Below, piece by piece: positions 45,495 through 46,955 of a DNA stretch of 64,000 bases. The position numbers were made by a program, and so were the translations under genes. This DNA is from Escherichia coli. GTDB taxonomy: Bacteria > Pseudomonadota > Gammaproteobacteria > Enterobacterales > Enterobacteriaceae. The stretch lies in assembly GCF_050320075.1 (NCBI RefSeq), contig NZ_CP190018.1; one strand, given 5' to 3'. Numbering within the stretch: the stretch's first letter is position 1; every line of letters starts with the position of its first letter. Under the pieces are notes generated by a model, which was not told the origin of the DNA, searched no databases, and saw nothing but the letters and a program-made list of their open reading frames with translations.

Positions 45495-45535
45495 TGCTCT
45501 GTCATCTTTCTAACACTTTACTGTCTAACACATGT
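45495..45535 (+). promoter_or_regulatory. Pho-box-like repeats in the ugpB promoter region
   Basis: CTGTCATCTTTCTAACAC and CTGTCTAACACATGTAAT, about 100 bp upstream of ugpB. Confidence 0.4.
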
Positions 45536-45638
45536 AATAAAAAAGTTATTTTTCTGCAATTCGGGCATGATATTTAATCCCACGAGCATGAAACGTGTGA
45601 ATTCGCTCATCAGGTACAACAAGCAAGAGAGATAAACG

Positions 45639-46955
45639 ATGAAACCGTTACATTATACAGCTTCAGCACTGGTGCTCGGACTGACGTTAATGGGGAATGC
45701 ACAGGCAGTGACGACCATTCCGTTCTGGCACTCTATGGAAGGGGAACTGGGTAAAGAGGTGAATTCTCTGGTCCAACGTTTTAACGCCGAAAACCCGGAT
45801 TACAAAATTATACCGACTTATAAAGGCAACTACGAAGAGAGTTTAAGTGCGGGGATCGCAGCATTTCGTACCGGTAACGCTCCGGCTATTTTGCAGGTTT
45901 ATGAAGTTGGCACCGCCACCATGATGGCGTCGAAAGCCATTAAACCGGTGTATGACGTGTTTAAAGAGGCGGGGATTAACTTTGATGAGTCGCAGTTTGT
46001 GCCGACGGTTTCAGGCTACTACTCCGACAGTAAAACCGGACACTTACTCTCCCAGCCGTTCAACAGCTCGACTCCTGTTCTCTATTACAACAAAGATGCT
46101 TTCAAGAAAGCAGGATTAGACCCGGAACAGCCGCCGAAAACCTGGCAGGATCTGGCGGACTATGCCGCGAAACTGAAAGCCTCCGGTATGAAGTGCGGCT
46201 ACTCCAGCGGCTGGCAGGGCTGGATCCAACTGGAAAACTTTAGCGCCTGGAACGGTCTGCCGTTTGCCAGCAAAAACAACGGCTTTGACGGCACAGATGC
46301 GGTGCTGGAGTTCAACAAGCCGGAGCAGGTGAAACACATCGCCATGCTCGAAGAGATGAACAAGAAAGGCGATTTCAGCTACGTCGGGCGTAAGGATGAA
46401 TCCACCGAGAAGTTCTATAACGGTGATTGCGCAATGACGACTGCCTCTTCTGGTTCTCTTGCCAGCATTCGCGAGTACGCCAAATTCAACTACGGCGTAG
46501 GCATGATGCCTTACGACGCTGACGCGAAAGATGCACCACAAAACGCCATTATCGGCGGAGCCAGCCTGTGGGTGATGCAGGGCAAAGATAAAGAAACGTA
46601 TACCGGCGTGGCGAAGTTCCTCGACTTCCTCGCGAAGCCAGAAAATGCTGCCGAGTGGCACCAGAAAACCGGTTATCTGCCAATCACCAAAGCGGCGTAT
46701 GACCTGACCCGTGAGCAGGGCTTTTACGAGAAAAACCCAGGGGCGGATATCGCGACACGTCAGATGCTGAACAAACCGTCGTTACCGTTCACCAAAGGAC
46801 TACGTCTGGGCAACATGCCGCAGATCAGAGCGATTGTGGATGAAGAGCTTGAGAGCGTGTGGACCGGTAAGAAGACGCCACAGCAGGCGCTGGATACCGC
46901 CGTTGAGCGTGGGAATCAGTTACTACGCCGCTTTGAGAAATCGACGAAGTCTTAA
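45639..46955 (+). CDS. ugpB: sn-glycerol-3-phosphate ABC transporter substrate-binding protein
   Basis: 438 aa, signal peptide; close to K-12 UgpB as I recall it; no ugpA downstream. Confidence 0.9.

Follow-up and report, generated by a model that had tools for sequence, protein, structure and literature searches.

The ugpB gene at positions 45639–46955 of the window, by which we mean the whole 64,000-nucleotide stretch of Escherichia coli DNA analysed here, is an additional copy of the gene and not part of a broken resident operon. Taken as a whole, the explanation that we prefer, at a probability of about 75%, is that this extra copy originated through REP elements and IS110-family activity, and that it would encode a functional binding protein driven by PhoB. 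The locus would be a worked example of how REP elements and a REP-targeting IS110 can lift one gene with its promoter from an operon into an island, and of an orphan ABC binding-protein gene that is able to persist intact among pseudogenes for a long time.

An additional ugpB copy and the native ugp operon

The island ugpB is encoded on the plus strand; its product is 438 residues in size, and both the signal peptide and the AQA cleavage site are kept. The protein scores 931.9 bits against the NCBIfam equivalog NF008211 (UgpB; cut-off 411) over residues 2–437, it also matches Pfam SBP_bac_8 and SBP_bac_1, and its top PDB matches are E. coli UgpB (4AQ4 and 6X84). Compared to K-12 UgpB, 425 of the 438 residues are the same (97% at the protein level, ∼95% at the DNA level). 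Trp169, Glu66 and a conserved arginine have been named as the ligand residues of UgpB (mature numbering; bioRxiv 10.1101/529602). As seen in the alignment to the K-12 protein, the ligand-contact residues W192, E89 and R397 (precursor numbering) are all unaltered in island UgpB. We take the conserved arginine to be position 374 of the mature protein; two of the island replacements, A166S and V375A (mature numbering), are located 1–3 residues from Trp169 and Arg374. The exact island protein is recorded in 5,224 blocks of public assemblies.

Like native UgpB, which is encoded by the Pho- and cAMP-CRP-regulated ugpBAECQ operon, island UgpB has the same length and signal peptide and shares Trp169, Glu66 and Arg374; the Pho-box promoters are also homologous. 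Different from the native gene, the island copy lies in a genomic island, with no ugpAECQ after it and no livF before it, and it carries 11–12 replacements specific to its lineage, with a promoter that has diverged strongly. It does not head a ugpBAEC(Q) operon, as an IS110-family pseudogene comes next, and tblastn and blastn searches of the whole 64-kb window found no homologues of UgpA, UgpE, UgpC, UgpQ or LivF. The sequence-only reading, made from the letters of this stretch, had described an intact ugpB that lacks ugpAECQ downstream, and both statements agree with the full-length ORF, free of stop codons and frameshifts, and with these searches.

Seen locally, with an IS pseudogene after ugpB and no ugpA within 64 kb, the region would fit a resident ugp operon disrupted by an IS, or assembly artefacts at the junctions. 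This reading is already refuted and keeps practically no probability. The genome of strain YZLc1-3 matches the window except for 2 bases in 45,031, and its native livF-ugpBAECQ-yhhA locus is intact at 378412–383445, ∼4 Mb from the island copy; strain W2-5 also possesses the island ugpB plus an intact native ugp locus. The full native operon is present in 5,421 of 5,426 complete E. coli genomes, and the 4-kb ugpB module occurs in 194 of the 5,426, at 99–100% identity and each time at a second place. As these 194 complete genomes are independent and share the 4 kb, assembly errors do not account for the junctions. Within one strain, island and native ugpB differ at 5.3% of the ORF positions and at 14 residues. 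Among the possibilities raised by the sequence-only reading, the translocated extra copy is the correct one, and a whole-genome search, as it had proposed, located ugpAECQ and a second ugpB at the native locus of YZLc1-3. Breakage of the operon by an IS describes the history of the captured copy but not the resident operon, which is intact elsewhere, and the suspected assembly error is contradicted by the same junctions in 194 complete assemblies. Literature searches gave no earlier description of an island-borne second or orphan ugpB in E. coli. Annotation, pan-genome and GWAS pipelines should keep the island copy apart from the core ugpB.

Boundaries and origin of the captured fragment

The ugpB fragment sits inside a mosaic, IS-rich genomic island of the yjh/KpLE2 region; the left part of the window consists of yjhIHGFU and restriction-modification genes. 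Collinearity of the window with W2-5, including fim/nan, was considered and rejected, as the match is YZLc1-3. Homology to the native locus spans only 45478–47010 (1.53 kb), covering the promoter together with ugpB and the first half of the REP between ugpB and ugpA. On the left, the homology breaks at CTCACC (45478–45483), a 6-bp match common to the pemK start region. The remnant of a PemK/MazF-type toxin gene (45167–45477, minus strand) abuts the ugpB promoter with its 5′ end; it is frameshifted, its antitoxin gene is missing, and it shares 69–78% DNA identity with plasmid pemK genes over 45175–45475. PGAP records a 61-residue PemK fragment and a 35-residue ORF at this place, and Pfam PF02452 is recorded. 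It is preceded by a non-coding, AT-rich island spacer (44566–45166; 31–41% GC in 500-bp windows), in which blastn and tblastn found no homology to the livF-ugpB region, and by an IS3-family transposase pseudogene (43428–44565, minus strand), which adjoins the conserved module on the left. PGAP describes the latter as ‘IS3 family transposase; frameshifted’ in identical genomes, and its ORFs show split rve and HTH_Tnp_1 frames. The right module boundary in the window is formed by an IS1 element (49911–50608, minus strand; IS1A according to PGAP).

On the right side, ugpB is followed by the initial 55 bp of the spacer between ugpB and ugpA (46956–47010, plus strand), which end in the REP half-site GTAGGCCG (47003–47010). 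The alignment to K-12 stops after GTAGGCCG, where K-12 continues with GATAAG, and blastn also stops at 47010. The IS110-family pseudogene extends from 47011 to ∼48345, and PGAP describes it as ‘frameshifted; internal stop’. It is a hybrid, with a joint near 47700–47712. The 5′ half (47011–47710, plus strand), with about 8 frameshifts or stops, shares 87% identity with an IS110-family element that lies in the spacer between kgtP and rrf of E2348/69, whereas the 3′ half with the 3′ non-coding end (47700–48345, plus strand) is from a different IS110-family lineage; from the joint on, it shares ∼95% identity with an intact IS110 of the Salmonella plasmid pSA20083530.2, to which the 5′ half is distantly similar. 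In total, the ORF carries about 11 lesions (∼7 frameshifts and 4 in-frame stops), and an intact DEDD recombinase gene (PF01548 plus PF02371) is not present. These results agree with the sequence-only reading on both flanks, for which it had given AT-rich island or IS-like DNA in place of livF and an IS110-family pseudogene downstream.

IS621 and the IS110 family target REPs (PMC11208160, PMC1525189). Insertion into a REP, with no terminal inverted repeats, is also observed here: the left end of the element directly adjoins GTAGGCCG of the ugpB-ugpA REP. In E2348/69, the left end of the IS110 element likewise reads GTAGGCCG followed by ATGTGAT, as in the window, and the element splits a REP at the position equivalent to the right end of the island ugpB fragment, with the rest of the REP flanking it on the right. 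In the window, the right flank is not the rest of the REP followed by ugpA; it is the upstream region of a phytase-like gene. Like in IS621 and other bridge-RNA IS110 elements, the insertion lies inside the REP, at ...GTAGGCC(G), near the IS621 target ATC(A/C)GGCCTAC on the other strand. Different from these relatives, the window element is dead and combines two lineages, and an Rfam scan of 43000–51000 gave no match and thus no RNA in the element.

The XH992/PK8275 variant is older, and its upstream homology reaches as far as the REP between livF and ugpB; the captured fragment therefore extended from one REP to the other. The left end of this unit has undergone secondary truncation in the window, where it is fused to the pemK remnant. 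We suppose that ugpB was cut out of the chromosome of a donor Escherichia by IS110-family insertions and REP recombination. Rearrangement after an IS110-family element had inserted into the ugpB-ugpA REP would have parted the copy from its own ugpAECQ, and recombination between two diverged IS110 copies may have deleted these genes. The IS110 lesions may be older than the orphan state of ugpB. In XH992, the 360 bp to the left of its decayed REP showed no similarity to IS110 ends, and thus no sign of a second flanking IS110 copy. The reconstructed uninterrupted junction (island 3′ end, intact REP and ugpA) had full-length matches of at most 95.9% among the 5,426 E. coli genomes, none of which thus showed a donor-like native allele. 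The dS of the island copy is 0.21–0.28 to E. coli alleles and 0.25–0.29 to E. albertii, and it is 0.07–0.26 within E. coli. In a donor search with one genome per species, whose sampling left out E. fergusonii, E. marmotae and E. ruysiae, the Escherichia matches listed were only E. coli (97% at the amino acid level) and E. albertii (96%). Recent gene conversion from native ugpB was rejected, as no long identical tracts were seen in 150-bp bins, and the BEN2908 variant cluster, which differs from the native states, was rejected as a conversion product. The island ugpB is an ordinary product of island mosaicism.

A recognisable but diverged Pho promoter

The captured promoter and 5′UTR (45478–45638, plus strand; 161 bp, identified by blastn and alignment to K-12) correspond by homology to the ugp promoter of K-12, which has been characterised experimentally. 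PMC4415409, citing Kasahara 1991, describes multiple Pho boxes in the native ugp promoter. By position-for-position homology to K-12, the island promoter contains six PhoB half-sites in an 11-bp phase, equal to three Pho boxes, at 45499–45560 (plus strand). From 45499, the half-site 7-mers are CTGTCAT, CTAACAC, CTGTCTA, ATGTAAT, AAGTTAT and CTGCAAT; summed over the six, their match to CTGTCAT amounts to 30/42, and the K-12 promoter has an equal score. A putative −10 element, TATTTAAT (45571–45578, plus strand), was read from the alignment 10 bp past the last half-site, and its K-12 counterpart is CATGTTAC. The layout is that of a Pho-regulon promoter, in which phased half-sites replace the −35 and are followed by 10 bp and then TATTTAAT. 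A strict 18-mer scan for CTGTCATAWAWCTGTCAY with at most 3 mismatches gave no match at the island ugpB promoter; by manual count, however, the island box and the validated K-12 box have 4 mismatches each, and the scan is uninformative. Because the strict consensus scan would miss even the K-12 box, the Pho-box call for the island rests on homology.

The Pho-box repeats had been called intact by the sequence-only reading; the half-sites are indeed recognisable, but the promoter is unusually diverged, with 22 private substitutions and a 4-bp insertion in 157 bp. Compared to silent positions of the gene, the promoter has diverged faster (private changes at 22 of 157 bp versus 9 of 191 four-fold degenerate sites, P = 0.004). 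The island promoter is 82–83% identical to those of E. coli, whereas the K-12 and Klebsiella promoters share 89% identity. The half-site score was held level by three gains and three losses (P about 0.014). Because the promoter is so diverged, regulation by PhoB as in the native copy may be altered or lost. As native sequence upstream of the 161 bp is absent from the island copy, the cAMP-CRP promoter is possibly gone too.

Retention, partner gene and predicted function

The constant partner of island ugpB is a gene for a secreted ‘esterase-like activity of phytase’ protein (48450–49793, plus strand; PF13449, Pfam E = 1.8e-61), present in 228 genomes, nearly all of them with the module. A PDB sequence search with the protein gave no match. 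Upstream of the gene, a Pho-box-like TCATAATATTTCTGTCAT, followed after 10 nt by TACAAT (48369–48402, plus strand), is a candidate promoter motif; the pattern CTGTCAT-N10-TANNNT occurs once in the window versus 0.13 expected by chance, for a pattern that was chosen post hoc. The same phytase-like gene is known as mobile cargo, as orf34 of the Shigella flexneri SRL pathogenicity island and on plasmids, where it is flanked by the same IS1; different from the window, ugpB does not adjoin it there.

According to the preferred explanation, island ugpB would be expressed from a PhoB-dependent promoter under phosphate limitation, and its product would be exported as a working glycerol-3-phosphate/glycerophosphodiester-binding protein. 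Substrate handover would be possible only through the resident UgpAEC translocator. Sharing of one ABC translocator by two binding proteins is familiar from HisJ and ArgT, which share HisQMP, and from LivJ and LivK, which share LivHMGF. Like in these pairs, the second binding-protein gene is unlinked to permease genes and its product would dock on an existing translocator. However, the members of the two pairs are encoded by core genes and have clearly different ligand spectra, whereas island and native UgpB are 97% identical and one of them is island-borne. Alternatively or additionally, a higher periplasmic dose of UgpB may provide bile-protective chaperone activity without transport. UgpB has a transport-independent, bile-protective chaperone role (Lee et al. 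2020, reviewed in PMC8144458); this dose-dependent role of a bile-responsive periplasmic protein, known for UgpB and putative for the island allele, would be open to an orphan ugpB. If functional, the island gene would add to the dose of UgpB, whose two known roles are the uptake of organophosphates and, as a chaperone, protection against bile.

The pattern of lesions and substitutions bears on whether island ugpB has any function, and the copy appears to be kept by selection. The rival view, which we regard as unlikely while giving it real weight, is that ugpB is a non-functional hitch-hiker, a neutral relic carried with the selected phytase-like gene and intact through the recent spread of the module. 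Module copies are 99.7–100% identical across genomes, which implies recent spread, and on plasmids and in the SRL island the phytase-like gene also moves without ugpB. Private replacements number 11–12 on the island branch and 2–6 on native branches (Fisher P = 0.014), and dN/dS of the island branch is about four-fold above the native branches. A45V, Q67E, A189S and P381S are at positions invariant in 27 enterobacterial orthologues, which fits relaxed constraint on island UgpB. The faster evolution of the promoter than of silent sites points in the same direction, as does the decay of a sister island ugpB linked to PhoX; the latter is a truncated pseudogene in most of 48 carrier genomes, which indicates that island ugpB copies can decay. 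Against the hitch-hiker view, the 1,317-bp ugpB ORF has no lesion beside the ∼1.0-kb IS110 ORF with about 11, and, different from ugpB, the neighbouring pemK, IS3 and ABC genes are also decayed. All 16 island copies that were compared have an intact ORF. The changes that are polymorphic among island copies number 4 nonsynonymous and 8 synonymous (binomial P about 0.002–0.01), whereas neutrality would predict roughly 3:1. The compensating gains in the PhoB half-sites also argue for function, and two promoter lineages, 12% apart and both with an intact 5′ ORF region, point to a long history in the island.

Decidedly improbable, in our estimate, is a neofunctionalised UgpB that forms with the PF13449 enzyme a PhoB-co-regulated phosphorus-scavenging cassette of altered ligand preference or regulation. 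Both genes occur together in about 200 chromosomes and in several island contexts, they have the same orientation, and an intrinsic terminator is not predicted between them. The Pho-promoter-like motif 5′ of the phytase-like gene, the remodelled ugpB promoter with a better −10, the closeness of A166S and V375A to the ligand residues, and the PhoX and decayed organophosphate-type ABC system borne by other island variants are all consistent with it. However, the two genes are joined by an IS pseudogene and not by operon design, the replacements are conservative with the key ligand residues the same, the phytase-like gene works as cargo without ugpB elsewhere, and its Pho motif was picked post hoc. 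We regard it as rather doubtful that UgpB and the phytase-like phosphoesterase (PhoX in some variants) are a selected mobile PhoB-controlled cassette, which would have been assembled by IS110-family (bridge-RNA) REP-to-REP capture and would improve phosphorus scavenging and/or bile tolerance in the poultry gut, its promoter being adaptively re-tuned rather than decayed. If true, this would be a natural case of bridge-RNA IS110 elements mobilising host genes. The carriers of island ugpB are some E. coli, largely poultry-associated, and the carrier lineages are enriched in poultry; the adjoining phytase-like gene has been linked to chicken isolates in a recent GWAS (PMC12987596).

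An island-borne ugpB outside its operon

The ugpB gene at 45639–46955 (+ strand) is complete, with an ORF of 438 aa. In protein alignment, its product is identical to K-12 UgpB at 425 of 438 residues; it scored 931.9 bits against the NCBIfam UgpB equivalog cut-off of 411, and its top PDB matches, 4AQ4 and 6X84, are both E. coli UgpB entries. The precursor keeps the signal peptide and the AQA cleavage site. Alignment with K-12 showed that the ligand-site residues Trp169, Glu66 and Arg374 are unchanged; we take position 374 to be the conserved ligand-site arginine. Trp169 and Glu66 have been named as UgpB ligand-site residues (bioRxiv 10.1101/529602). 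Every sequence test identified the protein as UgpB, the gene is already named ugpB in RefSeq (WP_000803221.1), and operon context is the sole point at which the identity fails. With K-12 queries, tblastn matched UgpB alone in the whole 64-kb window and gave no match for UgpA, UgpE, UgpC, UgpQ or LivF; in blastn, the sole match of the K-12 ugp locus was 45478–47010 (93.2%). The window holds the binding-protein gene and its promoter, and the rest of the operon is absent, just as the sequence-only reading had described. Our literature search turned up no account of another ugpB copy in E. coli, and we class the gene as an island-borne orphan binding-protein xenologue.

That reading had left two explanations, an ugp operon broken by IS elements or a translocated extra copy, and had raised assembly error at the junctions. 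The window is chromosomal E. coli DNA, with 2 base differences from strain YZLc1-3 (NZ_CP123240.1) across positions 1–45031. Its left part carries yjhIHGFU (KpLE2 region), mtnK/mtnA, McrBC and an Eco31I-type restriction-modification system, and from ~24.5 kb onward the sequence is a CP4-like island crowded with IS remnants. A genome search for ugpAECQ and a second ugpB found both in YZLc1-3, where the livF-ugpBAECQ-yhhA-ggt locus is intact at 378412–383445; between its native ugpB and the island copy, 5.3% of ORF positions and 14 residues differ. Both loci are also present in strain W2-5. The full native operon was found in 5,421 of 5,426 complete E. coli genomes, and the 4-kb island module (ugpB with its promoter, an IS110-family pseudogene and a phytase-like gene, bounded on the right by IS1 in the window) in 194 of the 5,426 at 99–100% identity. 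The gene is therefore an extra copy and its junctions are not assembly errors; the broken-operon explanation fails, owing to the presence of the native operon elsewhere in the same genome.

Variation also affects the native ugp locus: YZLc1-3 (comparison stretch L111, local 22307–23053) and O157 (L099) have a gene for a TPR protein between livF and ugpB, and a 176-bp palindromic element replaces the K-12 REP pair in the YZLc1-3 ugpB-ugpA spacer (L111, 24730–24904). In the window, the edge of the KpLE2-like region (15532–23553) holds the McrBC system and, adjoining it, an Alw26I/Eco31I/Esp3I-type restriction-modification system that has two methyltransferases; the island contains an H-NS-family paralogue between IS256 fragments (38270–38710).

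Boundaries and origin of the captured unit

Native homology ends at 47010, within the REP of the ugpB-ugpA spacer. At this junction, K-12 has GTGTAGGCCG followed by GATAAGCGAAGCGCATCCGGCA; the window goes on as ATGTGATTGACATC, directly into the IS110-family pseudogene. In its 5′ half, the pseudogene shares 87% identity with an element that EPEC strain E2348/69 carries in its kgtP-rrf spacer. That element has the same left end as the window (GTAGGCCG joined to ATGTGATGG) and the right flank GGATAAGACG...GCATCCGGCA, so that the two flanks of the E2348/69 element rebuild one REP. IS110-family elements, e.g. IS621, insert site-specifically into REPs at ATC(A/C)GGCCTAC (PMC11208160, PMC1525189). 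The rebuilt REP and this known targeting show that the right junction is a true REP-targeted insertion, located between ugpB and ugpA. From ~47700 on, the IS is ~95% identical to another IS110 lineage on a Salmonella plasmid, to which its 5′ half is only distantly related; the pseudogene is a hybrid of two lineages. Its right flank is the upstream region of the phytase-like gene, in place of the remaining REP and ugpA. In the simplest reading, two diverged IS110 copies would have recombined, joining ugpB to the phytase-like gene with loss of ugpAECQ. In an E2348/69 derivative (L006, ~3560–3660), the recombinase gene of the kgtP-rrf IS110 pseudogene contains ~16 tandem GGGTCC hexamers; the window copy has one unit.

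On the left, native homology begins at 45478, at a CTCACC common to the start of a pemK remnant. A rarer, PhoX-linked island variant (B-type, 48 genomes) keeps ~260 bp of native upstream homology, which reaches into a decayed copy of the livF-ugpB spacer REP; the longest captured unit thus spanned one REP to the next. Comparison of the left flank of the decayed REP in strain XH992 with IS110 ends demonstrated no second IS110 copy. B-type ugpB sits downstream of PhoX and two decayed ABC-transporter genes (L108, NZ_CP080163.1, 3677–8117; L107, XH992, 16314–21548), and in most of the 48 genomes it is a truncated, frameshifted pseudogene cut by IS66. It is full-length in XH992 and four other genomes, through recombination with the window-type copy (crossover at 45696–45724). 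In such recombinants (L104 and L107), the PhoX-linked lineage supplied the 5′ end and the window-type module the remainder, which brings PhoX, ugpB and the phytase-like gene into one block. Owing to this second lineage, some genomes carry three ugpB-derived loci. Window-type and B-type descend from one island ancestor, as they share ~14 derived changes in the promoter and an inserted CAAG that are missing from all native alleles. In one genome (L013, CP073976.1, 5272–6001), an IS1 precedes the start codon of the island ugpB by ~30 bp; the Pho-box promoter is displaced and the ORF is intact.

The dS between the island ORF and seven E. coli alleles is 0.21–0.28, compared with 0.07–0.26 within E. 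coli and 0.25–0.29 between E. coli and E. albertii. These values place the source in an Escherichia lineage roughly at the margin of E. coli diversity. Complete E. coli genomes contain no donor-like native allele; in the species-representative scan, Escherichia species other than E. coli and E. albertii were not among the matches listed. The capture combines known processes, namely REP-targeted IS110 insertion, IS-IS recombination and island mosaicism.

Selection on the reading frame and the promoter

Private replacement and synonymous changes number 11–12:18 on the island branch and 2:14, 2:20 and 6:26 on native branches (Fisher P = 0.014), and four island replacements (A45V, Q67E, A189S and P381S) hit positions invariant in 27 enterobacterial orthologues. 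We counted both as evidence for decay. Against decay, the ugpB ORF has no lesions, compared with ~7 frameshifts and 4 stops in the adjacent ~1.0-kb IS110 ORF; pemK and IS3 are also dead, as are ABC genes in other variants. All 16 copies that we compared, whether window-type or recombinant, have an intact ORF. Island copies picked without regard to UgpB sequence showed 4 nonsynonymous and 8 synonymous polymorphisms, against a neutral expectation of ~3:1 (binomial P ~0.002–0.01). Among the private replacements, A16T and A189S are polymorphic among island copies and thus arose after capture. We read the island ugpB as being under relaxed yet continuing purifying selection, with the qualifications that numbers are small, haplotypes may have recombined and the IS lesions may predate the orphan state.

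The promoter is the most unusual feature of the copy. Conservation of its native 157-bp counterpart is extreme (K-12 versus E. albertii, 95%; versus Klebsiella, 89%). The island promoter is 82–83% identical to any E. coli promoter, and other genera are no closer. It carries 22 private substitutions and a 4-bp insertion, compared with 0–6 private changes on native branches, and has changed faster than four-fold degenerate sites of the island ORF (9/191 private changes; P = 0.004); the two island lineages differ at a further 17 of 160 promoter positions. In the -10 region, CATGTTAC became TATTTAAT. The Pho-box-like repeats had been called intact; this holds for the six phased PhoB half-sites, whose total match to CTGTCAT (30/42) equals that of K-12, but not for the promoter around them. 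Three losses and three gains hold this score (3/6 gains, P ~0.014, post hoc test). The data fit a promoter freed from native constraints, still held as a putative PhoB target and possibly re-tuned; neutral drift combined with a recombination edge effect may also account for the divergence.

Proposed function and the phytase-like partner

Under phosphate limitation, PhoB would switch on the island promoter. The protein would be exported, owing to the retained signal peptide and cleavage site, and the unchanged Trp169, Glu66 and Arg374 make G3P and glycerophosphodiesters its expected ligands. Because the island ugpB has no permease genes of its own, transport, if any, would proceed via the resident UgpAEC, whose own binding protein is 97% identical to island UgpB. 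UgpB is also a dose-dependent, bile-responsive periplasmic chaperone, independent of transport (review PMC8144458), which could plausibly give an orphan ugpB a selectable role in a gut bacterium. Most of the biology here is ordinary; the REP-to-REP capture, the intact orphan among pseudogenes and the fast-evolving, still Pho-like promoter merit a footnote.

The constant partner of the island ugpB is the phytase-like PF13449 gene (48450–49793, same orientation), which occurs in 228 genomes, at 225 chromosomal places and in at least four different outer contexts. No intrinsic terminator was predicted between the two genes. A Pho-promoter-like layout, TCATAATATTTCTGTCAT-N10-TACAAT, lies at 48369–48402, about 50–80 nt upstream of the phytase-like ATG; CTGTCAT-N10-TANNNT, a post hoc pattern, occurs once in the 64-kb window against 0.13 expected. 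This unique layout suggests that the phytase-like gene is itself induced by phosphate starvation.

The phytase-like gene is also found without ugpB: the Shigella SRL island carries it as orf34, and plasmids carry it in an IS1 composite. In IncHI1B and phage-like plasmids from E. coli and E. fergusonii, two IS1 copies enclose the gene and a 3′ remnant of the IS110 pseudogene (L005, NZ_CP104510.1, 4248–8075). This IS1-bracketed composite transposon derives from the chromosomal module. The E. coli genes that a 2026 GWAS (PMC12987596) listed as associated with chickens include a 'phytase family protein', a porin and an autotransporter, which matches the island content and the many poultry hosts among our genome matches. 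To the right of IS1 (51320–58541), the window carries a C4-dicarboxylate/aspartate-type cluster (NAD-malic enzyme, DcuC, an RpiR regulator, a class-II fumarase/aspartase-family gene and a porin), followed by an autotransporter gene; this porin and autotransporter, like the phytase-family gene, are on that list.
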